DNA from: Marsupella aquatica
Taxonomy: Eukaryota > Plantae > Marchantiophyta
Assembly: GCA_973895155.1 (NCBI GenBank)
Contig: OZ316893.1
Span: 11,858,359-11,922,358 of the forward strand
Reading direction: 5' to 3'
DNA length: 64,000 bases
The position numbers and the translations under genes are program-made. This document shows positions 1-63,830 of this stretch, in pieces; position 1 is the stretch's first letter; each line of letters starts with the position of its first letter. The notes below the pieces were generated by a model. It was not told where the DNA came from, did not search any database, and saw only the letters and a list, made by a program, of their open reading frames with translations.

Positions 1-2580
1 ATGATTAAGTTCATTCCGAAGAAATCTGATAAGCAGCATCTAAGGGACTGGCGGCCTCTTACTATGCTGAACATAGGCTACAAGCTGGTTGCAAAGTTAT
101 TGGCGTTAAGGCTAATTCAAATCCTACCGAAGGTTATTAGTTCTCAACAAACAGGTTTCATTCCAGGAAGAAATATACTGGAGAACATTTCGCTGGCTTG
201 GCTAATGTTTGACTGGGTGAAAAATAGGAAGGTTGAATCACTTTTCCTTAAGCTAGATTTTGAGAAAGCGTTTGACAGAGTGGATCAGAGCTTTATATGG
301 GAAACTATGCACTTGTTGGGGATAAGCGGAACGTTCATAAAACTAGTCAAGGCACTATTACAACAGGCATCCTCAAAGATTTATGTGAATGGGTTGCTTT
401 CCTCTGAGATTGGACTGTTGAGGGGTGTTAGGCAGGGTTGCCCTCTTTCACCTCTCTTATTTGTGATATCAACTCAGCCTTTAATGGATTTTATGGATGC
501 TGAGATGGAGGCAGGGCGTTTAGATGGCATTCAAGTCTCAGCGGACTTGAGGATATGCTATAGGTTCTTTGCTGATGACTTGGGGATGTTCATCCCGGCT
601 AAGCAGAGGAGTTTCCTGAAAGCAACAACAGTGATACAGTGCTAGATGAATTGGCCACGGGGGCCAGACTGAATTTGCGTAAATCAATAGTCATCCCGCT
701 AGCACTGTTGAGTATTCCGGCATGGTTACAAGAGACTGGATGTGTGATTAGCAAGAAAGGAGAGCTACAGAAATATCTGGGTGCTCCTTTGGGGGTGGAC
801 CTGAAAATGGAACAACTGCATAGCTTTTGTCTGGATAAAATTGGGAAGAGGTTATCTTCTTGGTCGAACAAAATGCTTACCTTTACAGGACGCTCGCTTC
901 TGATTAGGCACATACTTCAAGCAATTCCCATTTATCATACAATGTTCCTTAAGGCGTCTGCTGGTTTGGCTAGGAAAATGACTGCACTGTGCAGGGATTT
1001 TTTATGGGGTCATAACAAGGAGGGGGGCAAGCGAGTTCCGCTGGTTTCCTGGGCACGTCTCTCACGTCCCAAGTTGGATGGCGGACTGGGGTTTAAAGAC
1101 TTCCGCAGTCACTCGGATGCGCTGTTATCAAAATGGTTTACCTGTGCAATGGACTACCCGGATACGGAATGGGCTAGAATGTTTGCTGAAAATCTGAATA
1201 GGATTGGATGGACTAACTATAAAGAAATGCGGAGGAATGGGTATACCTTCTGGGACAAAATGGTACTTGGCTGTCCTAGGGGATCTCTGGAAGGCCTGGG
1301 AATTGCTGCGAGCCAATCTGATTTTCTGTCCCTCTGAGCGGATACCTGGTAGATGGTCGATTTGTGATGTGCTCCGATGTTTAAAGGGAACGCAGGCGTG
1401 GAGCAGTGGTGACAGGGAAGCAGTGACAGTCCTTTGTGGAAGACTGGGCATCAGGAGCATGCAAGATTTATGGTCAAGTGAAAGGAATGGATGGTGAGGG
1501 CTGGCAGGAAGGTGGCTACATCTACGTGGATTCTCAGAGGAACACTTAACACTTGGACGCAGATTCATTGGGCTGTTAGCTGACATCCCCAGCTGTGAGT
1601 GGGGGGGTGGAGCCTGGGCCGGAGAGCTGGTGTTGGGCGGACAACCCTACTGCTCTCAGGAGGTTCAGAGTGTCAAATAAGAGAGCATATCAGATGCTGC
1701 AAGAGGAGGTGAGCGATTTACAGAGTTTAAATAGGACATGGGGAATTGCAAGCACGGGCGACGAATGGAGGGCAAGGTGGGCGGGGCTGTGGGGATTGGA
1801 CTTGTCAATGAGAGCTAAGATATTTATGTGGCGTGTAGTAGCATCGGGGCTCTTCACCGGGGTTAGGGAGGTCAAAATTGGTAAAGGAAATGGAGAGTGC
1901 AAGCTATGTCCTGGAACACTAGAGACTATTTCACACTTGTTCATGACCTGTCAACATGCACAGCGCTGTTGGCAGCTCTGTGCACAAAGCTTTGAGGGCA
2001 TATTTGCAGATTATTTTGGGGGGCTGCTTGGGATGATAAATTCTGCTGTGGGTAAGGAATATAGGAAGATAGTTAAAATGATTGTCTTATACCAGATATT
2101 GTGGATGATCTGGTTGGGTCGAAATGAGCATATGTTTGTGATGGGCGGGGCCCGGAGGTTTGATATGAGATTCACTCTCTCGGAGGCGGTGGACCATGTC
2201 ACTGCGGTCGGGCTTGCACTGCCAGCGAGCAACAGACGGACTAGGCTACTGAGAGTGAAAGAGATTATCAATGCAGAGCGGCTCACTTGGTTGAGGCGTA
2301 GAGACTGCTGGATCACATCAGGATAGCGTAGGAATGACTGATGGAAGGGTAGTAGGCTGGATAGGTGGATGGATTGCAGTAGAATAAGTTTGTTAAGGCT
2401 GTTAGGATGGTCTCTGGTTCCGGATGGCTGGTAGGAATACTTGATACCGGTGCTGTTGGTAAGCGGAGTTCAGTTGTGTGTGCTGGGCTGGAATCTGTTG
2501 TGCTGGTATTGGTGGTGACTTTTCTGTTTGTTTCCCCCCGGCCATGGGGTTTGCGTGGCCCACAAAAGTTATAAAAATTC
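1..2580 (+). mobile_element. L1-clade LINE retrotransposon, 3' part of ORF2 (reverse transcriptase + C-terminal zf-RVT), disrupted by stops/frameshifts; runs off the window start
   Basis: RT motifs WRPLTMLN, QTGFIPGR, LKLDFEKAFD, GVRQGCPLSP, FADD (1-645), KYLG and GGLG (639-1337), and CKLC..ETISHLFMTC zinc knuckle (1595-2326). The ORF is split over several frames; an A-rich end follows near 2565-2580. Confidence 0.93.
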
Positions 2581-2649
2581 TAAAAACGTTTAAAGGAAGC
2601 TTGGATTCCAAAATCCAGGCTAAAAAATTTCCAGAAAGGGGAGGAATGT

Positions 2650-3210
2650 AGTGAGAAATTTAACACTTGCCTGAAAATAAAAGAAACATCGTAAGAAGCA
2701 AAGAACGTGGTTGGTTGACCATAAGGTATATGTGTTGTTATGGACCAAAAGATGCCAGGGGAGACATGCGGGAGGATGATCTACCAGAAAATAGAGTTCT
2801 TCAAAATGGAGAGAAACCACTACAACATACTACAAATATTGGAGAGTCTTTTAGGAGAGGCTGCAGATTCAGTTTTTTAGCAAATTTCAAGGAGATGGAA
2901 AGGCCCAATGTCAGGTAGTTAGAGCAAAGGACTTGCCTGCTGAAATTCACAGAGTTCAAACATGTTGATAACACAGGGAATTTTTGTCATGGTTGGGAGG
3001 ACAAATATGCTTGGGATGTGGGGGCTCACATTGCCCCCAGAATATCCATTGACCTTCGTAAGAGCATTGAGAGGCTCTTGCGAACAGGAGTCACTGAACT
3101 GGGAATTTTGAAGGCCCAGTGGGAAGAGCTACGTGAGCATAGAAAGAAGTTCAGTGATGATAGAGCCAATGTAGTTTGGACAAGGGACATGGGACTAGAT
3201 TTGAAGGTGG
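2650..3210 (+). pseudogene. Degenerate fragment of a MULE/SWIM-type transposase-related protein (N-terminal part)
   Basis: Pieces YMCCYGPKD, RRGCRFSF, KHVDNTGNFCHG and APRISIDLRKSIERLLRTG match my recollection of the N-terminus of plant SWIM/MULE-like proteins (YWCS(Y/F)GPE..., RGC.CHF, HV...G..CHG). Stops and frameshifts lie between the pieces. Confidence 0.5.
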
Positions 3211-4739
3211 GTTGTGGGGAGAATCAAGGCCCTAAACCCTAAATGCCTTTGTAGCGACTCGTCTCCGTGAATCTAGTATGCCCCCTCCTTCTGTACTTGC
3301 AGGTACAACAGTACCTGCCTTGTGCATCCTTGTGGAGGTACCTTGTGCTCCTCTAAAGCCACTCGTACCGGGCCTGTACCAGGTTTCTTCACCTCCCTCG
3401 TCCCTCCTTCGTGGTCTCTCCCTCGTTTTTTTCCTCTTATTGGTTCCATTTTTACAGGTTTCAATTTTTCTCACCCAAAAGGACACACCAAATTTGAATG
3501 ACGACCACATCATTTTTTGGCGCAACCTCTTATTATAGTTCTTGATAGTGTCATTTCTCCCCATTATGTGACACAGATTCTCAAACCAGCTGTTCCATGG
3601 AGGTCTCTTGTGACTGGAATGCCCCGTGTCGGATCTTGATCAAAACTTACAAGGGCTTTAAAAAAATGCTACCATCATTAACTTGGGCAGTCAGTCTGCA
3701 CCAAAAATCAGTCTGTGCACATGCATTGGTGCCCTTCAAAAACCTGATGGTGACATGGATGGGTGTCATGATCCATCTCAAACTGAGAACCCCTACGCTA
3801 AGTATGTCCAAAAGTTGGGTTTTGGTCAGGATCATGAATGCAAATTTCCCACACGGGCTGACCGAAACAAACAGGAAACAGCTGGTTTGAGATGTCCCAA
3901 TACAGCCCGCACTTTAAGTAATACACTATGGGTGTCTTTACAGGAGTTAGGGGGCACTTTTGACTTTTTATTGACCAAAACAAAAAATGGAGGTTTACTT
4001 CTTGTTCTAAAGAATACCCTGACTGCTAGAACTTTGCTAACATCTGCGGCTGCCTTGCCTTGAAACGTGCTGCCACCCAGAATCATTGGTCCAAAGGCTT
4101 GACTCTAGACCATAGGCTCTGGAGTGAAGCTTTCAATCCCAAAGTATTGGTTACATATACAAGACTCCAGACAGATCTTTTGAAATGAAGTTCAATAACC
4201 AAATCTTGTGAATGGAAGAGCCAAAGGTTGGAAATGTTTTGCACCACCTCTCAAGGCGGTTTAAAGTTCTAGATAAAAAATAAGAACTCCACATTATTTA
4301 GCATTTACCTGGATCCATTGCTTGCCAGGTAGATTGATAGATACCATACTTAAATAGACCCCCAAGTTGTTGTAAAACCAACTGCAACAGTTTCCACTCA
4401 TTGTACTGTCTAGCTTTCATTTCAGAGACATGAGGGGCCCATTATCTTGTAAAGCCACCCTAAATGATTGCCTAAGGGAGATTTACAAGAAACACCTCAC
4501 AACAAATGATGGGTCACTTCCAAGGTTTTGCTTTTGGATTTCATCACAACCATTTATATCAAGTGGGTGTGGGTCCAGTTTGGATACATGAGATTTTTCT
4601 CTTTTGTAATTTTCAGGGCAGTTTTGGAAAAGAATGCACAGTCAAGATTTGGGATCCTCATTATGAAACTCCACTCTACTTTTACTAAACTAGGTAACAA
4701 TAAAAGTCTCTTAGGCTCTTGAGTGCATTCAGGAAGTTC

Positions 4740-6047: not shown

Positions 6048-10480
<4,433 letters not shown>

Positions 10481-33789: not shown

Positions 33790-34600
33790 ATCTCTTAATC
33801 GAGAAAGGGTTTCCAATGAGCCTCAGATTGACAAATTTTGTCAAGTTCCAAATGAGTTTTTGAATTTCTTTGCCTTTCCAATGAGTGTGAGTATAAGAAA
33901 TATTGATCATGAGTCCATGAATTCTTTTAGCTTTCCAACATTGAGTCCGACATTAACAAATTTTACGTCAGATTTTGTCACGATACTAAAGAGATCATGA
34001 GGTTTTCAATCTCTCTAGCTTTCTAATGTGTGACATTGAGATTATTTGTCAAGAATTAGAGAGATCATGAGTATCTGAATTTCTCTAGCTTTCCAATGAA
34101 CCTAACTCGGGGGTCTCACTTCCACAAAAATGGCATATCACGTGCGACGAAGGATAGGGTCATTTTATTGGTTCTAAGGGAAGACTTAAGAATTTTTGTA
34201 GAAGAACAATAGGGTCTTTTAAATTCAATTTTGAGACTTATAAGAACATTAGGGTCTTTTTAATCCAAATTTTAGAATATTCCAAGAATATTCCAACTTT
34301 ATAGGGGTTAAAAATAAAAAAAATTCTTACATTTTAGGGGGTCCGAGGCCTAAAAACGTCGCAGGCGATGGGGAGGTCCCCATATAGTGAGACCCCCCAG
34401 GAACCTAACATTGATAGATTTTGTCAAGTACTAAGGAAATGATGAGTTTTTAATTTTACTTTAGCTTTCCAATGAGTGTGACATTGAGAGAATTTATCAA
34501 GACAATATTAAAGAGGTCACTAGTTTCTAAATCTTGATCTTGAGTTTTCCAATGAATCAAACATTGACAATTTTATCAAGTACTAAGGAGATTGATTATT
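33790..34600. repeat. Degenerate tandem array (~60-70 bp unit, TAGCTTTCCAATGAG...ACATTGA), interrupted by a MITE
   Basis: Motif repeated roughly ten times; a reverse-complement array lies at ~42935-43150. Confidence 0.65.
34106..34400. mobile_element. 295-bp MITE with 15-bp TIRs and 8-bp TSD (copy 1)
   Basis: TIRs CTCGGGGGTCTCACT / AGTGAGACCCCCCAG; perfect TSD GAACCTAA (34098-34105 and 34401-34408). Near-identical to 55181-55477. Confidence 0.93.
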
Positions 34601-36180: not shown

Positions 36181-37266
36181 CAGGAACTTTTGAAAATTCC
36201 CAACACTAAATTAACATCATCTGAACATATTTTTTCATAATTAAAAATGCAAAGACATGATCTAAATTATGAATGTGGCTTTGACTTACTCAACTTAGGT
36301 AAAGTTGGCTTAGGGTTAGGTTGGCATAACATAAAGTGGGGTATGATCCCCTTACTAGCTCTTCTTCTCTCAAGCAAATTTCAACTCATTTGGTAACTAA
36401 GTAAGGTGAAGTCTGTTTGAATCTTAAATCTTTTAACTCATTACTGGGAAATTTGTTTGAGCTCAAATGTCTAGAGTCCACATACCCTAGTTTTCTCTCT
36501 GTCTTTGAACATTTTCAACCCATTTGATTGAGTAACAAAAAATGATAAATCCCACTGATTGGATTGTTTTGGCCCTAACTTAAGCTTTAGTTGGCTTAGG
36601 AAAGTTGGCTTAGGGTAACAGTGGGCTAATTTCAAGTATAGGTACAATTTTATTTTGAATTCACAAATTTGACCTCAGTTTGAGCTCAAACTTTAAGTAC
36701 ATATTAGAGTTTTCCGTAAAAGCAGCCCATGAAAAGACGGGCCACTCACCCTGTAATTCTAAAAGGCTAGTTACCGTGAAAGTAGAGCATGAACAGACTT
36801 TTTAGTCAAAACTCAAGGTGAAGTCCTACAGCTAATAATGATTTCTAGGTCAACTCTCGACTCTCGTGAGCATTTTTGACATCCCTCACACTTTCCACAG
36901 TGTGAGCATTTCTAACGTTGTACGCATGGTCCAGGCTGATCCTCTGTTGCGCTCTTGCTTTGCTTTATGGTGGTTCACTACTGTAGCTCTTCCAAATATT
37001 CTTTGTGTTATTCTTCTTGTTGCTACGGTAGTTGTAAGATCTAATTGATAATTGATGCTGCATGCTCCCACTTCCCTATGTACACTATTGCTCTGGCAGA
37101 CCTGCCTAAACGCCTGCGTCCACGCACTTGAGTTCCTTTGGTCCCATGTACTTGAGTTCCTTTTTTTCTGTACGCTTGTTTTGTCAGCTCTTTCAGAAAA
37201 AAAACAGTTTTTTAGTTAAGATCTCTGTTTGTATTTGCTGTTTGATCCCTCTTTGCTACAGTTGAA

Positions 37267-38403
37267 ATGGAGAATAATGGGTCCAACAGTCCACCCATCC
37301 CTAGTACTACGGATGATTCTCAGACATCTGATACTTCTCTTGAATTGAGTGATGACGAAGATTTATTAGACGACATGGAGGATGACTGGATGACTATGTT
37401 CCATGCTGCCTCAGTGACTGTAAACAGTAGAGATTTTTTCAATTTATATGAGTTGCAAGCAACTCAGGGAATGTATACAGATCCTGCAGCAGGGGTAAAA
37501 GATGTATTAAGGAGCATGAAGAATTTTCCAGGACGATTCAAAGAGCTCACCAATTTCACTATAGATGAGTGGGGAGACCTCTGTTGTCGTGTACTTCCAA
37601 TAATTGCATCGCATGCTAGGTCCACCGGAGAAGCTCACAATAGTAGAGGTCGTCCTTCAAAATTATCTCCAGAAGAACGACTGCTCAATTTTGTACTCTA
37701 CATGAAACATGATAACACCATTGTTCATGATAGTCATCAATGGAACTGGTCGCGATCTTCTCTGTGTGATGATGCATATTTTGTTGCATCATGTTTGAAT
37801 GTGGCACTCTCGGACAAGATTCGATGGCCTTCAGCTCAGGAGCGAATGGAGCTATCTACCCACAACCCTGATTGGCCAGGTTGCATTGGCATTATTGATG
37901 GCACTCTTGTGAAGATTCGAAGACCATTTAACAATGAGAATCATAGTGATTGGTTCCAAGGCAGGAAGAAGATGTACTGTCTGAATAATACAGTAATCGT
38001 TGATCATCATGGTTTGTTCATTTATCTGGACTCTGGTTACCCAGGTTCATATCATGACATAAACATTTTGAAACAGACTGAGCTTTTCAAGAATTGGAGA
38101 GAGTATTTTCAGCACACTGATGGGTACCATGAGTATTTGTTGGGCGATCCTGGATATGTTCGAGCAGACAGCTTCATCATGCATAGGTTTGGTGGGACAG
38201 AAGATACTCAAGGCATGAGTGCTGCCACTGTGAGAGCATGGAACAAAATGCATGTTGGATACAGAATCAAAGTTGAGTGGGGAATTGGGGGAATGAAAAG
38301 AAAATGGCATCGACTGATGAAAGGATATGATCTGCGGAAGTACAAATTCAAAGAATTCTTTCAAGCTGCAGCTCTACTGACAAATTTCCTCCAACGAAAA
38401 TGA
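37267..38403 (+). CDS. Harbinger/HARBI1-like DDE transposase (DDE_Tnp_4 type), 378 aa
   Basis: CIGIIDGT, YPGSYHD, YLLGDPGY and RIKVEWGIGGMKRKW motifs give the D-D-E triad; an HTH-like region lies upstream. The final TGA may be slightly premature. Confidence 0.9.
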   Translation: MENNGSNSPPIPSTTDDSQTSDTSLELSDDEDLLDDMEDDWMTMFHAASVTVNSRDFFNLYELQATQGMYTDPAAGVKDVLRSMKNFPGRFKELTNFTIDEWGDLCCRVLPIIASHARSTGEAHNSRGRPSKLSPEERLLNFVLYMKHDNTIVHDSHQWNWSRSSLCDDAYFVASCLNVALSDKIRWPSAQERMELSTHNPDWPGCIGIIDGTLVKIRRPFNNENHSDWFQGRKKMYCLNNTVIVDHHGLFIYLDSGYPGSYHDINILKQTELFKNWREYFQHTDGYHEYLLGDPGYVRADSFIMHRFGGTEDTQGMSAATVRAWNKMHVGYRIKVEWGIGGMKRKWHRLMKGYDLRKYKFKEFFQAAALLTNFLQRK

Positions 38404-52141: not shown

Positions 52142-52489
52142 CACTAGAAGAAAATAGGGCCCTTTATGACCAATTACCCAATGACGGAGATGAATAAATG
52201 ACCAAAATTTCTAATGACACAAAAAGAATGATAGGAGAATGACTGTCCACAATGACCAATAGACTAAAATGACAAAATGTTAACTTTTGCGTCATTTTGT
52301 ATAATGTTTGTAATGACTGATGCGACCAAAATGACCCAATTTCCCTAAATGGTCAATTTAGACACATGTCTTAAATGACACAATTAATAATAACAATGAT
52401 AAATCAGTGTTTAGCACCATTATAGTCACTCTGGACAATGATTGAAATAACCAAAAATATATTTGGGTCATTTTGGACAACGGTGTTAA

Positions 52490-52920
52490 ATGACAAAATA
52501 TAGGGTCAATCTGAAAATGAGAATATATCAGTGTTTACAACAACATACCGTCATTATGGACTTCTCTCATAATGACTAACTCTAGGGTCAATCTTGAAAT
52601 TAGGACATATCAGTGTTTACACGAACATACCGTCATTATGGACTTCTCTCTTAAATGACTAACTCTAGGGTCAATCTTGAAATTAGGACATATCAGTATT
52701 TACAAGAACATACCGTCATTATGGACTTCTCTCATAAATGACTAACTCCAAAGTCAATCTTGAAATTAGGATATATCAGTGTTTACAACAACATACTATC
52801 ATTATGGACTTGTCATATAAATGACTAAATATAGGGTCAATCTAAAAATCACGATATATCAATGTTTACAATAACATACAGTCATTATGGACTTATTGCA
52901 TAAATGACTACTTATAGAGT
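52490..52920. repeat. CACTA subterminal tandem array, 82-83 bp unit, ~5 copies
   Basis: ATATCAGTGTTTAC...GTCATTATGGACTT unit starts near 52525, 52607, 52690, 52773 and 52856. Confidence 0.9.
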
Positions 52921-53009
52921 CATTAAAGAACCCAAGAGATATGAAGATTAAAATACTCAATAGTCATTCCAGACACCGGTCATAATTGTAGAGTCATTGA
53001 TATAGTTGA

Positions 53010-54229
53010 TAACCCTTCCACTAAATGCGGGACACAATATATACTCATCATTGTCCTCCCACTGGTTGCGGCATTAGCAATTTGAACATATGTCTTGCAT
53101 TTACTTAAGGCATGATGCACCTAGCTTTGGGGAAATCACTCTCAAGTCATACACCTTTGGAGTGATTTGGCATAAGTGTTACCATATATAGATGCATACT
53201 ATCGTATCCAAAGGCAAATGAAGCCTTTTTGTCTCTCCAAGAAGTAGGGCAATACCAATGGAAGGTTGTCATCCTTTGTTGTAATTGTGTCATGTTTGTG
53301 CCGGTGTTTGGATGGGGAATATTTTAATTTGCAAATGAATAGTGATGGGGCATTCAAGGAGCTAGTGTAGTCTTTATTGGGTCATTTCTAAAAACATTTG
53401 CATCACAAATACCAATGACTACAAGTAGGGTCATTAAATTTGTCATATGGACTGTCATATAAGTCAAGTGACTGGACTTGTGGTCATTTGTGTGGTCCCT
53501 CATGCAATCATTAAACACAAGCACTAATGACCAGTTTGGGGCTAGGGGCTTGAGGTGGGCCCTAGAGTGCCATGGGGCCCCACATAGAGGTGAGAACCCC
53601 TCCACTAGGTGTGGGACACTATACTCATCATTGTCCAACCACTAGTTGCGACATAAACACTTTGGACACATGTTTTTGCGTTTACTTAAGGTACGATGCA
53701 CCTTTGGGGAAATCACTCCCAAGTTGTACGACTTTGGAGTGATTTGCCAAAAGTGTCATCATGCATGCATACCATCACATCCAAAGGCAAATAAAACTTG
53801 TTTTTGGGTTCTCCAAGAGGTAGTGCTGCACCAATGGAATGGGCAGGGGAGTCGTGCTTCTCAGTATGGTGTGGGTGCGGGTTTAGGGAAGAGGAATATT
53901 CCAACCTTACAAGGAATCTAAAGTTGGTTCTCTTTGGAGGTACTAGGGCCTTTATTGGGTCATATGTGAGCAATGGCCCGTCATAAATGCCAATTACTAC
54001 AAGAAGGGTCATTAAAATGGTCACATTGGATGTCATATAAGCCAAATGACTTGATTTATTGTCATTTGAGGGGTCCCTCATGCAGTCATTAAGGAAAAGC
54101 ACAAATGACCAGTTTGGGGCTAGGGGCCCCTAGAGTGCCATGGGGCCCTACATAGAGGTGAGAATCCCTCCACTAGGTGTGGGACACTATACTCATCATT
54201 GTCCATCCACTAGTTGCGACATAAACACT
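53010..54229. repeat. Internal CACTA tandem repeat, ~570-590 bp unit; the array resumes at 62655-63530 after the Sola insertion
   Basis: CC.TCCACTA..TG.GGGACAC.ATACTCATCATTGTCC at ~53015, ~53600 and ~54168. Sequence at 62655 continues the unit (CACTTTGGA.ACATGTTTTTG.GTTTACTTAAGG) exactly where 54229 breaks off. Confidence 0.88.
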
Positions 54230-54550
54230 AACAAGAAGCCTTAAGGGATGAGTCCAAAGCCTTATTTCTCTTTTCAAAATCTTCATGATATTAAAAAGTG
54301 TATACCAAAAAACCACCAAAAAATGGTATGTATTTTCCAAACTAGACTCAAGAGAATTTTACCACCAAAATCTAAGCATATCTTATATGATATTCTCACA
54401 ATTGTATAAACCTTGAAATATGCACTTTATAAAAGTAATCAAAATCAAACTCATCGATCAGAGTTTAAGTCAAACTCAAAGTTTTACAAAATATAACCCA
54501 ACTTAAGCCCAAGTGGTTTCAAATGCTACGAGTCCCTCTATTTATCTAGT

Positions 54551-57500
54551 CTAATCCAAAGGGACCGCTTCCCCTTCCTCGGTTCCGGAAGTCCCTATCG
54601 TCAATTCTGGAACAATTGTGGCATCGTCAACCACGCTATCCTCTCTGGCCTGAGGAATGTCTTCCTCACTCTCCTCATCCATCTCCCCCTGTCCGTCTTC
54701 CTCTTCAATGTTATCTGCAAGGTTAAGAATCCTCCCTTTCAACACACTGCTCTGTCGCTCGTCAATCTCAATGGCAACGCAATGTCTCCCCATGGCCAAG
54801 GAGGAGGTTGTCCCAGTCCCTGATCCTAAACAAATATCCAAAACCCAGTCTCCAACCTGACTAAAATGACTCACTTCCCAATCTAACAATGCACGTGGTT
54901 TCTGATAAACATTCACTGCCTTGTTATCCCCGTTGTGTTTCAGCTTCTTAGTCACAGCTGCGCATACAACCACATTGTTCCTTGATTCATTTGTGTCAAA
55001 ATTGAAGTGCTCCAATGACCGTTTACCATCCTGGCTGTGAAAGCCAATTGTAAAGCACTCAAAGTTGCTGTTCAATCTTGGTCCACCAGCATTCTTCACA
55101 TTATCCTTAACCCTGAAAAGTCACAAAAAGTCAAGGAGTTATTTAAACTGAGAAACATGGTTCATGAAATCATGAATAACCTCGGGGGTTTCACTTCCAC
55201 AAAAATGGCATATCACGTGCGACGAAGGATAGGGTCATTTTATTGGTTCTAAGGGAAGACTTAAGAATTTTTGTAGAAGAACAATAGGGTCTTTTAAATT
55301 CAATTTTGAGACTTATAAGAACATTAGGGTCCTTTTAATCCAATTTTTAGAATATTCCAAGAATATTCCAACTTTATAGGGGTTAATAAATAAATTTTTT
55401 TTCTTACATTTTAGGGGGTCTGAGGCCTAAAAACGTCGCAGGCGATGGGGAGGTCCCCATATAGTGAGACCCCTGAGTGAATAACTAATAGTTGTTTTTT
55501 TCAAAAACAAATATTTCTTACCACACACAATTCTGGAACCCTCCATTACACTCCGCTTTCAAAACGGTCTTGATGGCCTCATATTGGTCAAGGCTGTGGT
55601 GAATGATAATACGCCACAACTTTGCAGTAGTAGCCACCTTGAACGATTGGACCATTTTTGTGATCTCCTCAGTTCCCCATCCAATAGTGTCTTCATGAAG
55701 ACATCCAGGCAATGCAAACCCGTAGGGAATATCCACTAAAGCTAATGTGTAAGCCCGACCCGGAACCACCTCATGTAATCGCTGAGCATCATGAGTAAAA
55801 ATATCATAGTGCACATCACCAAACTCTGGATGCTCAAACGAATTTGGATGAAGTTCCCCCTCTTGGGTTTGCCGACTAGAAGTCTTCATGGATAGCCAAT
55901 TTTGGGCTTGCACAATATGCGCATTGAATTTGTCCGGGAATGACTTGAGATCTTTGCCTTCCTCATCTCCCTTCTTTTTCCGGGAGGTGGTATCTTTCTA
56001 CAAAAAGGAACTGTAGAATTAGAAACAAGGATTCCAAATATTAAATGAATTCAAACAATCATTCGAAGAAAGGTGACAGAATCTTACCCATGTCTGGAAA
56101 ACAGGTACAAAATTCTTAAGCACATTGTCTGTGCAATGCTCAGGGTACTTGGTTTTACAACTTGACCAACTCTCCTCGTGTAGACACGTGAGGAAGGCCT
56201 TCTGCACCTGCATCTGAAATTTGTGTCGAGTAAATTCGTGACCCATTTCCTGTAAAGAGAGTTCTTTAGTAAGAACTCTCTGTAACACTGGGCAAATCAT
56301 ATCAGGATCTTTCAAGGCCTGCATGTGTCTCCACTCTATTAATTTCATGTCCTCATAAGGCAATTTGGCATCTCCAGACTTAGAGACTTTCTTCTTGCCT
56401 TTGTCTCCTTTTTGACCTTTGATCTCACACATCTCCCACTTGTCACAAATCTGCCTCACAAATGACCACACAGGATCTTGTCGGAATGCCAACTGAAATA
56501 GGTTATCATTGGCATTAAGAACCTCAGCATCCTTTCGTACACCCCAATCCTTGAGATTGATTTCAGTAGCACACTCTTTCTTGAAATCCTGGTTGGACGA
56601 CAATCCATTCTCAACAAATCTCATGTGAATATAATTTACTCTCTGGATTGTCGTCATCTGTTGTCGAAATTCAGAATCAATATTGTGACTCCACGCAAGG
56701 TTTCTTGCCTCTTGCACACTCAATCCCGCAAATATCCAAGATTGCACTCTCCGAAATGCCTTGTTGTTAGGAAACTGAAGAGCAAGGTCTGCTTTGGCAC
56801 AGGCTGAATGGTTGCCCCCAATCACATAATAATGGTAATCAGCTTTCCTTGAAAAATCAAAGTCTTGCCTAGTAGCACACTCCTTCGGATCCACCAAGAG
56901 GACAAACGGAGCTGCAAGTGGACTGGCACCTACAGTCTTCATCCGCAAGGTCAATTGGGTCAAGAAATATGGTTGGATGTGTCGGACCTGGTAAATGGGC
57001 AAGCCCACAGCCTTCTCTCTCACTGGAGGGTAAAGTTGACCAATGTCAACGGTCACGGTCTCCTCTTGAACACCACATCTTCCCAGAATCTCCTCCTGGT
57101 ACAATACCCGTGCATCCATTGACATTGATTGAGCCTTTTGCTCCAAATGCGTTGGAATTTTCTCCAAAGTCTTCTTTTTTGACTTTGTAGCACAGGGCTC
57201 GGTAGGCTCAGGAGTCATAGCAGGTCGCTTCTTTGAAGAAATGCGAGTTCCAGTCGTACCTTGTGCCGACCCACCAGTCAAAGGCGTTCCCTGGGATGAT
57301 CTGCCAACTTGAGATCCCCCTCCAGATGCTGCTGCTTCCCGGGAGGTTGTAGGCGCTACCACGGTCAAAATATCATCGGGTAAAATGCTAGGCCTCGATC
57401 CAGAAGGAACACCGAAAGCCCCAAATTTGGGTGGACGACTTACTCCCTTCTCTACCGACCTTTTCCGGAGAATCTCTCTTGATTTTCGGATTGCACTCTT

Positions 57501-57917
57501 TAAAGTGCTAGCGTGAAATTCAAACACAAAACCGGAAATCTTTCCCGCGACGTCGTGGTAACGTTCCTCACTCGAAAGAGACTTGACAGTCTCAATGATG
57601 CTATCGATGTCCTCATCGAGATAGCAGGTGGCAGCCGTTCCAGAAAACCTCTCCACATCCACGACAATCAAAGTTGATGTTTCCTTCGTTGTGATCAACA
57701 TGTTCACAACTTCGTCGCCCCGTCGAAATACATCGATGCGGCCGTAATTTACCCACCCTAATGCCCCCGATGGAAGCCCCTCAAATACACACAGCATTAG
57801 GAAGGGCTTCTTCCATGTTTCCGTCCCTAAGGAAATCGTCCAGGATGAGTTGTGGAAGTCCGTCAAAGGATGGCGCGAAAAGATGTCATCCACCAGCTCT
57901 TCCTGCGACATTGTCAT
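54551..57917 (-). CDS. ParB/Srx-like domain + beta-class N6A/N4C DNA methyltransferase fusion, 3 exons (57917-56088, 55997-55522, 55112-54551), 955 aa
   Basis: GT-AG junctions join the ORFs in frame (...FQTW|KDTTS...; ...NCV-W-VKDN...). MTase motifs occur in beta order: LALVDIPYG (motif IV, DPPY-like), CVWVKDN, YQKP (motif X), VLDICLGSGT (motif I), GRHCVAIEID. ParB-like core: QVRHIQP...PFVLLVD...YYVIGGNHS...LAWSHN. No stops in the spliced frame. Confidence 0.85.
55181..55477. mobile_element. 297-bp MITE (copy 2) inserted in intron 2 of the methyltransferase gene
   Basis: TIRs CTCGGGGGTTTCACT / AGTGAGACCCCTGAG; perfect 8-bp TSD TGAATAAC (55173-55180 and 55478-55485). Near-identical to 34106-34400. 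Confidence 0.93.
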
Positions 57918-58696
57918 GTTTTTGCCTGATCTTCAAACCTGAGAACATACCACAAAATCAGTCCACTTCAACCCCAACCTGCGAGACAAAGTGCCACAAA
58001 ACCAAGGAATGTGCCAACAAATGGCTACTAAAACCGTGTCCTTACGGATCTAACAACGCTCTCGGCCACCCCAGGACTCCTATCATGAATTCATGAAGGG
58101 AGTCTCCCTCTCGCTCCGACCTTCATGAATTCATGAAGGGAGTCTCCTCTCTCTTTGCTTGTACACCTCGGTGATGCAGAAGGGTATTTAAAATAGGGTT
58201 CGGAGGGGGGTGACGTGAAGAAATCACCCAGGGCCTAAATTACTACCTAAAACAGGGTCGAAATGAAGTGCGACCGCGACAACTCGCGACACGTTGCCGA
58301 TGAGTGCTGAAAATGGCACGAAATTGGATAGCGAGATTGTTTTTCACTCTTTTACAAAGGAAATCCAAATGACATTGAGTGAAAATGAATGGGCTGCCCC
58401 GTGTTCCTTGGTTATACATACTAATCACGGATCAGGCGCGACTTAGTAAAATTAACCCAGAATCATGATAAATCAATGTTTTTGGGCCAATTATTCATGA
58501 ATATTTCGGGGTATTAACGGGAAAAAGCTTGCAAATTTCATGAATATTTGATATTTTTGAAGTTAAAAAGTCCCAACAATCCGTGAAAAACTATAAATAG
58601 GCTCGTTTATTCATGACTCTTGGTCATTATTTTGAGAACATTTGTTAGATTTTACTGATTTTCTGAGTTTCTTGTCAATTTGCACTAGTTTTTCCA
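57918..58696. promoter_or_regulatory. Divergent intergenic/promoter region of the Sola element with duplicated palindrome and TATA-like boxes
   Basis: Lies between head-to-head genes. TCATGAATTCATGAAGGGAGTCTCC occurs twice (58083, 58123). CTATAAATAG at ~58591 is upstream of the transposase; TATTTAAAA at ~58185 reads as TTTTAAATA towards the MTase gene. Confidence 0.5.
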
Positions 58697-58833
58697 ATGG
58701 CGGCGTGTTACGAATCAGATGATTATTCAGATGGAGTTTCTGATGATGTTTCATTGCCGGATGGCCCCTGCACAGTGGTTGGCCCAGATATCCCTGGAAT
58801 AACTACTATTTTAGATATGCCACCCCCACCCCT

Positions 58834-61800
58834 ATGAGCAAGTTAAAACGTAGTCCTTTACGACTTGCAATTAGTGGGAAGAAATCATTGGTCGATGGTA
58901 AAGAGAGGTCAGGGAGCTCCTCTGACTCCTTGGAGAGTATTGGTCCCCCTGGACGTCAAGTTGTATCTCCTTTGTCACCAACAAAGGACAAATTGGGGAG
59001 TAATCTGGAAGGTTCAATGCCTATTTGGATGTCTGGGAAACGGTCTCATGAATTCATGAAGACTGGATTTGGAAAGACGAAGAAGGCACTAAGTGGGGAA
59101 AATGACAGAGATTTTTGCAGTCTGCAAAGTGTTCAGCGGCTGAAGCAAATGCCAAAAAGTAAAACCTTTGGTAAGCCAACGTCGGAAACATTTCACAGGG
59201 GGATGAGGGAAGAAACTAGACGACCAGTGTTATTGAAAAGTATTCCAGAAAAGAATTCTAATGTGCGTTCCTCAGTTTTACCTAGGAGTCATGGTGTTGG
59301 GGCAGGGAGCGGATCAAGTCACGGAAACTCAAACAGGGAAACCAACCTGGTGGAGAGGGACCCTAGGAAAATATTGAAAGGGTCCCTACACGGTAATGGA
59401 GGGATTTCTGAAATACGCCCAGGTATTCCAAGGGTGCATAGAGTGAAGGAAGAGCCTCCATCTCCGAAGGCTGCAGGTCTGGAATCTAGGCATGTTCAGA
59501 AGCAAATGTTGGTGACCATTTCATCATCGAATGAAAGCGAGTCTTCGGAGAGTGGGGAGGATGATGATGTTCCGGTGGCATCTAGTCGTTACAAACGTAC
59601 GAGCAACGCCACTTTGTGTGAAACAAAGTTGAAAGAGGAGGATATCAAGAAAACAAATAGTAAGTACTGTTGTCAGAGTCATTGTCTCCTAAGTCTATCT
59701 CCAAAAGAAATTCGTGAGGCGCGTTCTAAATTTTTGAGGCAGAAATCTCAGGATCGATCTTTATCTTTGCAGTGGCTTATAAAGCGAGACGGAAATGAAG
59801 GAGGGAGGCAGACTATATCTTACACGTTTGGTCAAAAGAGTATTTGTCGGAAAGCTTTCAAGCTTATATTTTGCGTTGGCAATCATAGATTAAATAGAAT
59901 TTTGAAATTAGACAACCAAGACTTAGGATATTCTAAACCAGTTGGACGCCCTCCATCTGTTAAAAGATTAGTCTTGGTCAGTTGGCTTAGGTCGTTTTTT
60001 GAGACACGCGTGGAAACATTGCCAAATAAAGAAGTTTCACATTTACCGGATAATTATTCAAAGCTGGAGGTATGGAAGATCTACGACTCCAACTATGCCA
60101 AGATTGATGAATCTTCAAAAATATCCTATCGACAATTCTTGAAAGTTTGGGTTCAAGAATTTGGTCATGTGAAGATTCCTCCAGTCAATCGATTCAGTGC
60201 TTGCGCGGATTGCGAGGAGTTCAAATCAATTCGGGACAAAGCTGTCTCGGAGACCGAAAAGAGTAAGTTGCTTACAAGTTTGACAAGTTTTTGTTTCAAG
60301 AATATGGCTTAACACATGATTTCTAATTTTTTTTTAAGAAACTAACAAGTTGTTTTTCCAGGGCGAGGGGAAATTATGTTACAAAAACATAGAGACCAAC
60401 AATCCAAAGAACGTGAGAAACTCGCGAAGCATCGTAAGAAATGTTTTTCAAATTCTGATAAATATTTGGGAGTTGTCATTGATGGGATGGATCAGAAGAA
60501 GACAAGGTTGCCTCATTGGCCGCGGCCCCCAAAATCGGTGGACGAAACATGTTTGATCCAAATGCACATTGTCGGATGCCTGGTTTTCAATGGTGCACTA
60601 TTTTCAAGAGTGTTTCTTAATTATCCTGTATTGCATAATGATGGAAACTTGACAGTCACAATCCTGCAAAGGGTGTTTCACGAATGGGAAGAAAAGCCTG
60701 GTGGCTTGCCGCCTGTTCTCTATCTTCAACTTGATAATACCAGTAGAGAAAATAAAAATAACTTACTCTTTGCCTATCTTCATATGTTGATTCGAAGAAA
60801 GGTTTTTCGGAAAATCAAACTAGGATTCTTGTTGGTTGGACACACACACGACCAAATAGATCAAATGTTCAGTCGATTTTCTAAACGACTAGCAAGGTTT
60901 AAGGCATTCACATACGAAAGCCTATGTGATATTATTTGTGAATCATATCAACCCCAACCAAATATCACTCTTTTAAAGGAAACATATGATTTCCGTCAAT
61001 ATGCCTTCTCAGATCCACCTTTAGTCATTGAAAGGATTCGAAATGTTACCTTCCACCACCAGTACAAATTTGCATTTGACAAGTTGGAAAATCAAGTTCC
61101 AACCCAATGGGGGAAGAAGTTTTCCACGGACTCAACTTGGAAACCTGACGGAGGCGTGAAATTTTTGAGGGAAGAGGAGCCAGAAAAGGTGATGGGTTGT
61201 GCTCCCGGATTACCCCTTTTCAAAAAGGGGGATAAGAACGTTACAAGGACTCAACCAAATATGTCTAGTTCTTCAAGAATGACTTTGAAGGAGATGGATG
61301 ATTCGTTAAATGAGATTCAAAAGGGAATACTTGCAGTTGAAACTTTATTCTCAGAAGAGGAAGTGAACTGGTGGAGAATGTTTTTTGAAGAGCAACGGGA
61401 ATTGAATAAATCTTTGCTCCTTGATCAAAGACCATTGATTTTCCCTTTTCAATGGCCACGCTCCCAAAGGGAGATTGCTGTTGCTGCTGAAGTTCCCAGA
61501 GTCCTTGTCAATGAAGAGGAAATTGAAGAGAGAGTATACGGACCTACCAGAGATATATACGTGGGTCCTTATCGGAATCAAGGAAAGATAGATGCAGAGA
61601 AGGAGAATATGGAAGGAGACTTTTCGGATCTTGAAGTCAACACTTATATTTCTGTTGCTGGAGAAGAATCGGAAACATTTTGGGTGGCCAAGGTGGAAAG
61701 AATTGACCAGCGCGACGAGTTCAACATTCCAAAAATGATTTATGTTTTATGGCATGCTCCAAAAACCGGGTCAGATCCTTGGAAAGCCAAGTACTTACCA

Positions 61801-62094
61801 GAAGTCTTAAACTACGAAAAGAAGAAAAGTGGTCGTGGGAAAGGAACTTTGAAACCAATATGGTTTCACCAAGAGCTTGATTTATCTTCAACGACTGTTT
61901 TTGCTTACAACTTCATGTTGACAAAATCTGATACATTGTACAAAAAGACAGTAGATCGAATCAAAATCCGATTGACTGAATTTTTGGCAGAAGAGAAAGA
62001 GCAAGAACAAGAGAATAGATCAACTACAACCCCGCTAGGAGATAAATCTAGGGATATTTCGTTTCAAGAATTGAGGACTTCTGGATCTGAGTAA
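58834..62094 (+). CDS. Sola1-like DDD transposase, 2 exons (58834-60262, 60362-62094), ~1053 aa; original start probably 58697 with a 1-bp frameshift
   Basis: 99-bp intron A|GTAAGT...ACTAAC...TTCCAG| keeps frame (ETEK-R-RGEIMLQKH). Cys motifs CCQSHC, ICRKAF and CADC. Catalytic-type motifs VIDGMDQ, YLQLDNTSRENKN and VGHTHDQIDQMFS. Located inside TIRs with a 4-bp TSD. Confidence 0.85.
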
Positions 62095-63830
62095 TGAAAA
62101 GTAGTTATTGTTTGTGACATTACCATTGAAAAACATGGATAACTTGAAAATTTACAAATTTTCAAAATGCCTTTACCACTTATTCATGAATTCATGGTTA
62201 AAGTTTCTTGAGAAATTTGTAGTTTAATATTATCTTAGTGGGTTGTGTTTCAATTCAATTAGATGGTGTCATTTCTATTCTCCTTGTCTTCTTTTCACAA
62301 TAATGTGTATCAGGTTAAGTTGTAGTAATTTATTTTCTGGTTTTTAAATGACAATGGCTTTTGGAGGTGATTTAGTTGTTGTTTCAAAAGACACCTCGTG
62401 TAATTGTGAGACCATTGTAGATAATAGTGTTGTATTTGAGATCATTTATTGGTGGAATGTAACTTCAGATGAATTTGGTCATTTTTAGGTGTCAAAACAT
62501 AGCTAGTTTATGTCATATTTTGTTCGCTCCATATTTTTGCTCTAAAATAGGTGCTAATTTTTGCACTTTTTTTGACTTTTTCGTTGTTTTTCTGATTTTT
62601 TGGCTAGAGTTCCTAAAGTATGGGCTTGTTACTCATCATTTAAGGCTTCTTGTTCACTTTGGAGACATGTTTTTGTGTTTACTTAAGGCATGATGCACCT
62701 TTGGAGTGATTTGCCAAAAGTGTCACCATGCATGCATACCATCACATTCGAAGGCAAATAAAAGTCATTTTTTGGTTCTCCAAGAGGTAGTGCTGCACCA
62801 ATGGAATGGGCAGGGGAGTTGTGCTTCTCAGTATGGTGTGGGTGCGGGTTTAGGGAAGAGGAATATTCCAACCTTGCAAGGAATCTAAAGTTGGCTCTCT
62901 TTGGAGGTACTAGGGCATGGTTGTGGTGCTTCCTTGTATGGTGTGTGTGAGTGGGTTTAGGGGTTTGCAAGGAATTTAGAGCTGGATCTCTTTTGAGGTC
63001 TAAGGACTTCATTGTGTCATTTGTGAACAATGGAGTGTCATAAATGCCAATTACTACAAATAGGGTCATTGAAACGGTCATTATATAGAATAGGTCAAAT
63101 GAGTGGACTTGTGGTCATTACATTGGTCCCTTGTGGAGTCATTTAGGAGAAGCTCAAATGATCAGTTTTGGGCTAGGGGCTAGAGGTGGGCCCTAGAGTG
63201 CCATGTGGCACTACATAGCGTTGGGAACCTATTTAGTGGGTGCAGGACACTCTACATACTATTCTTCATCCACTACTTGTGGCATAAACACTTTGGGATA
63301 TGGGGATTCTATTTCTAAACCCTAAACTTTTGCTTCATTGGGCCATTTGTGAACAACTCTAGGTCATAAATGCCAAATAATGACCTCCTAGAATGTGATT
63401 GTGATTATGATATGGGAGTACCAAATCACCCAAAATGGGGTCATTAGAGGATTCCCTCATGATGTCATTGAGGAAAGAGGTTATAATGACCAAACTGGGG
63501 CTAGGAGTAGAGGTGGGCCCTAGGGGATAACAAGGTTGTTGCAGGACAACAATGGAAAGGGTCTCTTTCTTCATTTCATTTGGGTTGATTGGTAATGGCT
63601 TATAAAATGTTTATGGCCCCTCCACACATATAGTTGTCGTATGGTGGAGTAAGCCTAAGTAACCTTATATGTTAGGGGTTCCAAACTTTTGTGTTACCCA
63701 ACAACTAGTCCCAAGTCATGGTACTCATCAAAAGGAGTATGGGACAAGAAACTTATCAACCGTTTGTACCACTACTTGCAGCACATGACTTCATTTTGGA
63801 GCCAATCATGCTTTTGACTGTCATAAGTGT

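Follow-up and report, generated by a model that had tools for sequence, protein, structure and literature searches.

We analyzed a window of 64,000 nucleotides from the liverwort Marsupella aquatica (assembly GCA_973895155.1, contig OZ316893.1, positions 11,858,359 to 11,922,358 of the forward strand; all positions below are those of the window). It contains a cut-and-paste DNA transposon, and within the transposon a minus-strand gene that is predicted to encode a DNA methyltransferase. The N-terminal half of this protein carries a domain whose predicted structure has the core fold of the ParB/sulfiredoxin (Srx) superfamily. An earlier note, made from the sequence alone, had placed such a domain at 56500-57100, N-terminal to the methyltransferase and followed by a helical region. 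In bacteria, archaea and phages, ParB-fold proteins are now viewed as nucleotide switches of general use, and Srx is the usual eukaryotic representative of the fold (PMC12704722). The gene described here belongs to a plant-lineage family of 403 clusters, which is under selection and transposon-borne, has the ParB-methylase layout known from phages, and is unseen by the profile models tried.

The methyltransferase gene and its transposon

All of the peptides quoted in the earlier note lie in one minus-strand frame that runs from stop to stop over 637 codons (56019-57932). Frame residue 295, at 57050, is the first of VDIGQLYPP; GGNHSACA begins with residue 372 (56819) and LAWSHN with residue 412 (56699). 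Together the quoted peptides span 56,640-57,062. Residues are numbered below in the stop-to-stop frame, as were residues ~285-480 of the earlier note; numbers counted from the ATG at 57917 are lower by 5. The interval 56500-57100 contains the ParB-like N-domain (56658-57062) in full and reaches one third of the way into the helical domain that follows it (56214-56657).

A splice model, 57917-56088 / 55997-55522 / 55112-54554, joins this frame to two further minus-strand frames and gives a product of 955 residues. Exon 1 (56088..57917, minus strand) is an open frame of 610 codons from the ATG at 57917 to a GTAAGA donor after 56088. It is followed by predicted intron 1 (55998..56087, 90 nt, GT-AG) and by exon 2 (55522..55997), which contains methyltransferase motif IV, LVDIPYGF, within the frame 55518-55997. 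Predicted intron 2 (55113..55521) measures 409 nt in the window copy, where it holds a nested small repeat at ~55181-55473, and about 104 nt in most copies. Exon 3 (54551..55112) encodes the S-adenosylmethionine (AdoMet)-binding motif I, VLDICLGSGTG, within the frame 54551-55120, and ends with an acidic tail and the stop codon. This model is the most canonical-looking GT-AG choice among many that keep the frame, with GTAAGA and GTAAGAAAT as donors and with pyrimidine-rich acceptors. Similarity to relatives stops at the exon-1 donor in each relative whose frame reaches that far, and the position of this intron is therefore shared with them. Contigs from public sequencing runs all behave like DNA, one of them crossing intron 1 unspliced, so that both introns remain predictions.

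The exon-3 frame matches PF01555 (N6_N4_Mtase) with an E-value of 1.6e-8 (35.2 bits, against a cut-off of 26.7) and a CcrM model with 2.7e-10. In the 955-residue model, motif IV is found at residue 699, ahead of motif I at residue 861; this is the permuted, beta-class order. Motif IV reads DIPY in the window and DPPY, DAPY or DLPY in relatives. An Asp at the start of this motif suggests an adenine-N6 target, and adenine-N6 is the predicted target here. Phage enzymes that match the methylase half are 27-37% identical to it. The best phage match to exon 3 is the methylase of Klebsiella phage VLCpiS13f (E 2e-7), whose gene lies directly behind a ParB-like helix-turn-helix (HTH) gene; exon 2 had no match in the phage records. 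Exons 2 and 3 encode the C-terminal 345 residues, in which PF01555 was the only family detected and no ParB C-terminal dimerization domain was found.

The gene lies in an element of 8,425 bp, 54230-62654, whose ends are inverted repeats of 32 nt (54230..54261 on the left and 62623..62654 on the right). These arms are 84% complementary, and their first 15 nt are identical. The left flank ends and the right flank starts with CACT (54226..54229 and 62655-62658), a 4-bp target-site duplication. The target was a satellite with a unit of ~575 bp, and an intact unit elsewhere in it, 53620-53710 (AAACACTTTGG), reads across the insertion site. Empty sites were also found in public sequencing data: 5, 4 and 5 contigs in the runs X1, X2 and X3, respectively, pass from 54229 into uninterrupted satellite, and other contigs in these three runs start at 54230 or have different flanks. 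Each of three public runs yielded 2,113-3,744 contigs that match the gene at 90-100% identity, and a fourth yielded 172; the element family is thus multi-copy, with near-identical members. Inverted ends, a target-site duplication, an empty site and many copies identify the element as a cut-and-paste DNA transposon.

Predicted fold, conserved pocket and palindromes

An AlphaFold2 model of 346 residues, covering 57125 to 56088 and built from an alignment of 13 rows, had a pLDDT of 84.6 and a pTM of 0.73. Its elements follow in the order strand, loop, helix, strand, strand, helix, strand, helix and helical domain. When this model was compared with the Protein Data Bank (PDB) by Foldseek, 10 matches were obtained at E <= 0.001, and all 10 were ParB or Noc (best, 7ng0, E 3.9e-5, probability 1.00). 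The rows behind them included KorB, PadC, pNOB8 ParB, Srx, SbnI and SerK. We then re-aligned 199 of the Foldseek matches with VIA. Caulobacter crescentus ParB (7bm8_A) gave Z 9.2 and a root-mean-square deviation (rmsd) of 2.4 Å over 97 residues (model residues 21-155), and PadC (6ryk_A) gave Z 9.2 and 3.0 Å over 96 residues. Srx proteins scored Z 6.0-7.0 (rmsd 3.3-4.0, 84-92 residues aligned), and Srx, SerK and SbnI rows taken together Z 6-7.5. The top 32 rows all belonged to the ParB/Srx superfamily (Z 9.4-6.0), and unrelated rows did not exceed Z 3.7. In a library of phage structures, the top named rows were mostly ParB-like proteins (1.3e-4 and weaker) and included a mycobacteriophage protein named DNA methylase.

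From the Foldseek and VIA alignments, the ParB/Srx-fold N-domain extends over 56658..57062 (minus strand; residues 291-425 of the frame and 22-156 of the model). Next comes a helical domain (56214..56657, minus strand, model residues 157-304) that stands at the position of the HTH DNA-binding domain of ParB, as judged from VIA rows that span two domains. In these rows, ParB, Noc and KorB cover model residues 22-304, with Z 7.7-9.4, 171-200 aligned residues and rmsd of 7-14 Å; such high values would be expected if the N-domain and the DNA-binding domain were set at different angles. The fold check suggested in the earlier note thus returned a predicted structure with the ParB/Srx fold, and together with the splice model it bears out the claim that a ParB/Srx-fold domain and a helical region precede the methyltransferase in one gene. 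The presence of the superfamily core fold in exon 1 is confirmed at the level of predicted structure, and it is at that level only that the resemblance to ParB exceeds chance.

A word-based search found 12 relatives with 54-70% identity. VIGGNHS and NIDSEFR, the latter within a conserved NLAW-x-x-NIDSEFR block, occur in 13 of 13 rows, the window included. A profile search of 1.84 billion representative sequences then returned 403 clusters at E <= 0.001, of which 138 also passed a threshold of 1e-10 and 36 one of 1e-30. Among 42 long representatives, PF01555 stands behind the matched region in a single predicted protein in 8, so the fusion recurs outside the window; neither ParBc nor DUF3723 was detected in any of the 42. 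All members with a named organism are streptophytes: Chara braunii (with many paralogs), Riccia sorocarpa, Calypogeia fissa and Ginkgo biloba. Outside this group, tblastn of the ParB-like part against 50,697 phage records gave no match at E <= 10, and pattern scans gave 20 matches in prokaryotic genome contigs and 38 in viral contigs, of which none was confirmed as a relative of this part.

These results leave the proposed origin of the unit in a prokaryotic mobile element plausible. In its favor, phages and prophages carry fusions of the ParB-CTPase fold to an N6_N4 methylase (PF02195-type with PF01555; PMC12704722, PNAS 2025), and the phage methylase behind a ParB-like gene has been mentioned above; it is this shared architecture that makes such an origin plausible. 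On the other hand, the ParB-like part has no relative in the prokaryotic and viral sequences searched, and its named relatives are all from streptophytes.

Conservation was counted over 179 matched stretches. The best-conserved positions of the family are an arginine, a GG-x-H turn and a His-Asn pair. The arginine is that of YQVR (R317; 56982..56984, minus strand), which lies in the loop after the first strand and is kept in 60 of 64 stretches. The turn, GGNHS in the window (56805..56819, minus strand), joins the third strand (model residues 99-103) to the second helix (105-117); by secondary structure and by eye, this is the place of Box II (GxxR) in ParB. Its first Gly is present in 97/105 stretches, its second in 95/105, and its His in 99/105. 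The next conserved residues are an Ala (88/105) and, four residues on, an Arg or Lys (86/103). The His-Asn pair of NLAWSHN (frame residues 416-417; 56682..56687, minus strand) ends the helix after the fourth strand, and its His is found in 73 and its Asn in 90 of 93 stretches. The Asp of LLVDP (69/84), an Glu (65/94) and a further Asp (63/90) are also conserved. In an alignment of 48 rows that reaches down to 20% identity, every sequence has the His of the turn, and at least 90% have each of G, G, A and N.

The earlier note had pointed to GNHS as a variant motif. Conservation among homologs holds for GG-x-H, which is nearly invariant; the Asn (60/105, otherwise G, T, S, C or Q) and the Ser (62/105) are fixed only in the close relatives, and the family motif is better written as GG-x-H-[S/T]. 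The residue after His, at the place of the GxxR arginine, is S in 62, T in 12, G in 8 and R in 2 of the 105 stretches, with S in the window; in 18 of the 105 an Arg is found one position further on. Similar motifs are GGCHR, found in Srx at the turn that matches Box II, and DGQHR in DndB.

These counts bear on nucleotide binding. Replacement of the Box II arginine by alanine abolished binding of nucleoside triphosphates (NTPs) in the ParB-fold binders tested; ParB folds can bind ATP or GTP in addition to cytidine triphosphate (CTP), and the bound nucleotide is not predictable from sequence (PMC12704722). Since this arginine is nearly absent from the family (2/105), canonical CTP binding and clamp formation are unlikely here. 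The pocket is conserved despite the missing arginine, with the best-kept residues located where ParB folds bind their ligand, and it is therefore likely still used for some ligand or contact other than classical GxxR-bound CTP. The domain is under selection. Compared with two metagenome copies, it has a nonsynonymous divergence (dN) of 0.12-0.29 with synonymous sites saturated, and dN/dS, where computable, is 0.116 and 0.045, values that indicate strong purifying selection on both sub-domains. Not all copies are intact: one metagenome copy (L002) has an in-frame stop at 2851-2853, inside the ParB-like region.

The element also contains repeated palindromes. Two copies of a 25-nt repeat, CCTTCATGAATTCATGAAGGGAGTC, with the palindromic core TCATGAATTCATGA, lie 40 nt apart at 58083..58136, between the two divergent genes of the element and 170-220 nt upstream of the ATG of the methylase gene. 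A third exact palindrome is found at 59046..59059, inside the first frame of the divergent gene, and a copy with one mismatch at 62184-62197. Allowing for one mismatch, the window has 3 exact and 2 one-mismatch copies of TCATGAATTCATGA, where 0.03 are expected; all five are inside the element, and none of 100 shuffled sequences reached five. With a free center, TCATG-N4-CATGA occurs 5 times in the window, 4 of them in the element (expected, 0.13); one of these lies in intron 2 (55162..55175), ~50 nt upstream of exon 3. The same pattern is found in two independent metagenome elements whose encoded proteins are 66-69% identical, namely 4 times in 4.8 kb of L002 (346, 1233, 1273 and 4375) and 3 times in 3.6 kb of L003 (316, 358 and 3215). 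In all three elements, two palindromes lie upstream of the gene at 40-42 nt from each other and a further one is in intron 2, the intronic placement in L002 (4375) and L003 (3215) being deduced from tblastn coordinates. The half-sites are retained, and the central four bases vary from element to element (AATT, CTAG, ATAT and ATTT). This is the pattern expected of sites for a dimeric DNA-binding protein of the element, and TCATG-N4-CATGA is a candidate binding site; it also supplies a candidate for the element-specific loading sites of the earlier note. In a 38%-identical relative (L004), three tandem palindromes of a different sequence, CCTTTGGGTGCCCAAAGG-like, occur 52-57 nt apart at 306-432.

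Proposed role of the ParB-like half

We tentatively propose that the ParB-like half is a targeting, self-associating arm of the transposon's methylase, which would act at the element's own palindromes and is probably no canonical CTP clamp; we favor this reading while holding it with real reservations. The ParB-like N-domain and the helical domain would together form the arm, and the arm would bring the predicted adenine-N6 methylase to the TCATG-N4-CATGA palindromes without the canonical, CTP-gated clamp cycle. Methylation would then mark the DNA of the element and either alter its own expression or counter silencing by the host. This purpose is suggested by analogy with other transposon-borne enzymes that modify DNA.

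A number of points weigh against this proposal. The DNA-binding role of the helical domain, and the palindromes as its sites, are putative, and the HTH assignment of that domain, although likely, comes from alignments with an rmsd of 7-14 Å. The palindromes could equally be assigned to the protein of the neighboring DUF7869 gene, to promoter elements or to the target of the methylase. Linkage of the DUF7869 gene to the methylase gene is known from the window copy only, and tblastn of both its frames gave no match in the relatives L002-L006, which are short contigs. The arginine R317 is presumably the counterpart of the 'QPR' (Box I) arginine of ParB, an equation made from an alignment by eye, and the His-Asn pair was likewise matched by eye to the 'EN' of Box III. 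The three-exon structure is a splicing prediction. Motif IV, as DIPY, departs from the canonical DPPY, and N6_N4 domains have switched repeatedly between N6-methyladenine (6mA) and N4-methylcytosine (4mC) (PMC8885841), so that the target base may be adenine or cytosine.

Further points concern the fold itself. The first model was built from 13 sequences only. Pfam searches with the frame and with pieces of the domain found no ParB family, and the domain matched no family at all even at E <= 10. Among 48 family members, none matched ParBc (PF02195) at E <= 0.1, and HTH_ParB was not found. In the PDB, the 15 phmmer rows (E 0.66-0.94) were to picornavirus polymerases and TRIM5 and are taken as chance; a 13-member profile returned one low-complexity row, and a 48-member profile one Exportin-T row (E 2.7). 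A family alignment compared with one phage ParB-like protein by hhalign had a probability of 0.5%. HTH_ParB was not matched by the window domain in Pfam and no ParB family was found in NCBIfam; DUF6551 gave one sub-threshold match in each of two Pfam scans. This lack of sequence-level support, and a VIA Z of ~9 that is only moderately above the background of 7-8 stated for the tool, are what would be seen if the ParB likeness were an artifact of modeling or a chance alpha/beta arrangement in an unrelated domain. We consider this highly improbable. The top 32 VIA rows come from one superfamily, with a gap from Z 6.0 to 3.7 or less; an rmsd of 2.4-3.0 over 96-97 residues and a Foldseek probability of 1.00 argue in the same direction, the conserved motif falls on the Box II turn, and phages commonly have a ParB fold in front of PF01555 (PMC12704722).

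If the fold is accepted, it might work as a sliding clamp gated by CTP or another NTP, which would load at sites in the element and spread methylation by sliding, much as the earlier note had suggested. A ParB N-domain followed by a domain in the position of the DNA-binding one, palindrome pairs that recall parS sites, and pocket positions kept in 60/64 (R), 99/105 (H) and 90/93 (N) stretches are all consistent with a clamp, as are the 18 of 105 stretches with an Arg one position later and the ability of ParB folds to bind ATP or GTP besides CTP (PMC12704722). Even so, we regard a clamp as unlikely. The GxxR arginine, whose loss abolished binding in all tested binders (PMC12704722), is present in 2 of 105 stretches and is Ser in the window, and a methylase stands in place of the ParB C-terminal dimerization domain; the CTP clamp of the earlier note is not upheld by these observations. 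Loss of the Box II arginine, and a sequence that has diverged past every profile, would instead suit a scaffold without ligand or sites, inherited from a phage-type fusion and serving for dimerization or autoinhibition of the methylase. This we hold to be distinctly unlikely, since the most conserved residues of the family are the pocket positions and both sub-domains are under strong purifying selection. The same residues could also form an active site of His, Asn and Asp, in which case the domain would be an enzyme, either a ParB-like nuclease or nickase or a phosphotransfer enzyme like Srx or SerK, that aids transposition or DNA processing. Conservation of R317, D (69/84), H (99/105), E (65/94), H-N (73/93 and 90/93) and D (63/90), the Srx, SerK and SbnI rows at Z 6-7.5, and the likeness of GG-x-H to GGCHR and DGQHR would fit an enzyme. 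The best and longest matches, however, are to the DNA-binding proteins ParB, Noc and KorB and include the second domain, and no nuclease motif was found in the domain, which makes a catalytic role quite improbable.

A bolder form of the targeting proposal would make the protein a eukaryotic counterpart of the ParB-parS system. With an N-domain, an HTH domain and a His-based pocket, it would load at paired palindromes in promoter and intron, deliver or spread adenine methylation, and thereby control expression or shield the element from silencing by host cytosine methylation; the same fold might also occur in DUF3723 of fungal Starships. We think that this extended scheme is improbable.

The closest known systems are the phage ParB-N6_N4 fusions (PMC12704722), which, like the window protein, are found on mobile elements and combine a ParB fold with a permuted, beta-class amino-methyltransferase placed behind it. 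The window family differs from them in being eukaryotic, in having two predicted spliceosomal introns, and in residing on a DNA transposon with inverted repeats. Its protein also contains a Lys-rich linker and, at the N-terminus, one more domain; the ParB-like part lacks the GxxR arginine and is unseen by Pfam, NCBIfam and PDB profiles. Sequence kinship with phage and prokaryotic members is detectable for the methylase half only. The window protein resembles the ParB, Noc and KorB clamps in its N-domain fold and in having a helical domain where they have the HTH, and its element has palindromic candidate sites; it differs in lacking the Box II arginines and the C-terminal dimerization domain, with a methylase fused instead, and CTP binding in the canonical mode is unlikely. 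Srx shares the core fold, and its GGCHR turn resembles the Gly-Gly-x-His of the window; the window protein has neither the catalytic Cys nor an Arg after the His, has a second, helical domain and a methylase, and is transposon-borne and multi-copy.

Prokaryote-type DNA amino-methyltransferases have been described in eukaryotic genomes as N4CMT of bdelloids (PMC8885841), DN4MT1 of Marchantia (bioRxiv 10.1101/2021.02.12.428880) and the enzymes of DAM retrotransposons (bioRxiv 10.64898/2026.05.21.726589), and the last of these are also carried by transposable elements and proposed to serve them. They differ from the window gene in that N4CMT carries a chromodomain, DN4MT1 lacks additional domains and has TSPPY as its motif, and the DAM elements belong to the retrotransposons and encode D12-class enzymes. 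None of the three papers uses the term ParB in its main text. Cut-and-paste transposons with a DNA-modification enzyme as the second gene are known in fungi (KDZ, Plavaka and others with TET/JBP dioxygenases; PMC12730594); both the enzyme and the transposase family are different there, the window element having DUF7869 and a 4-bp duplication. No published description of a ParB-like methylase in a eukaryotic transposon was found in the papers and preprints searched, a scope outside which lie Repbase and the subscription journals; Datasets S4 and S6 of PMC12704722 may list eukaryotic fusions. The gene is a new, eukaryotic variant of the phage-type ParB-methylase fusion, a layout in itself known from phages. 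The family offers a natural test of ParB-fold function without the Box II arginine and a candidate enzyme for DNA methylation other than 5-methylcytosine in charophytes, bryophytes and one gymnosperm, and the element would be a further case of a transposon with its own epigenetic writer.

Other features of the element and its surroundings

The second gene of the element (58747..62094, plus strand) is divergent from the methylase gene. It consists of two frames in one phase, 58747-60312 and 60346-62094, and the second matches DUF7869 (PF25273, E 3.1e-51). From its position inside the inverted repeats, we infer that it is a putative transposase; no other transposase family was found in it by Pfam scan, and the name DUF7869 was not found in the literature searched. 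The two frames are separated by two stop codons 30 nt apart, probably reflecting a short intron, and a Ser-rich stretch without any family match makes up the N-terminal 520 residues. Classification as a CACTA element was considered from the left end, CACT|AACAAG, and was rejected because the right end reads ...CTTGTT|CACT and not ...TAGTG.

The methylase protein begins with a domain of a beta-sandwich and helices (57450..57890, minus strand, protein residues 10-156), for which AlphaFold2 gave a per-block pLDDT of about 86-98 over residues 11-150. Its fold is unassigned and weakly like that of PH domains. It had no Foldseek match in the PDB at E <= 0.001, and a wide VIA comparison found none of 48,161 chains at Z 5, the best rows (up to Z 4.1) being mostly of the PH superfold. 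Weak Foldseek rows to the RFTS domain of DNMT1 (E 0.11-0.44, probability at most 0.15) were not upheld by the wide VIA comparison.

A feature search of the ESM Atlas with the ParB-like domain ranked fungal DUF3723 clusters first (0.96, 0.96 and 0.95). HMMER gave no support for this match, which we keep as a lead only: PF12520 (DUF3723) was absent from the window domain, the 42 representatives and the 48 members. DUF3723 is an accessory gene of Starships whose function is still called unknown, and a ParB-like fold there is a possibility raised by the Atlas ranking. Among relatives of the ParB-like part, variant architectures also occur (P0068 and P0175). One representative has an N-terminal sterile alpha motif (SAM) domain, and one Chara protein combines PF14273 with PF01555. 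In L004, a Ty3-type gag frame lies nearby (7156-7947), and the ParB-like frame has a sub-threshold match to DUF6551 (E 0.009).

The repeat nested in intron 2 (~55181-55473, ~300 nt) is present in the window copy and missing from most others. In four of four public runs, contigs contain a joint from 55172 to 55478 that skips 305 nt, with 8 shared letters, and the depth over the repeat is 30-100 times that of its neighbors. A 96% copy lies at 34106-34396, and the repeat may be an element like a miniature inverted-repeat transposable element (MITE). The satellite flanks of the transposon (53040-54229 and 62655-63296) are tandem repeats of ~575 bp with very high depth in the public runs, and an 83-bp tandem array lies just upstream (52406-52985). 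Other mobile remains in the window, at 1-2326 and 37246-38403, are LINE-like (a reverse transcriptase together with zf-RVT) and Harbinger-type (a transposase frame of DDE_Tnp_4).

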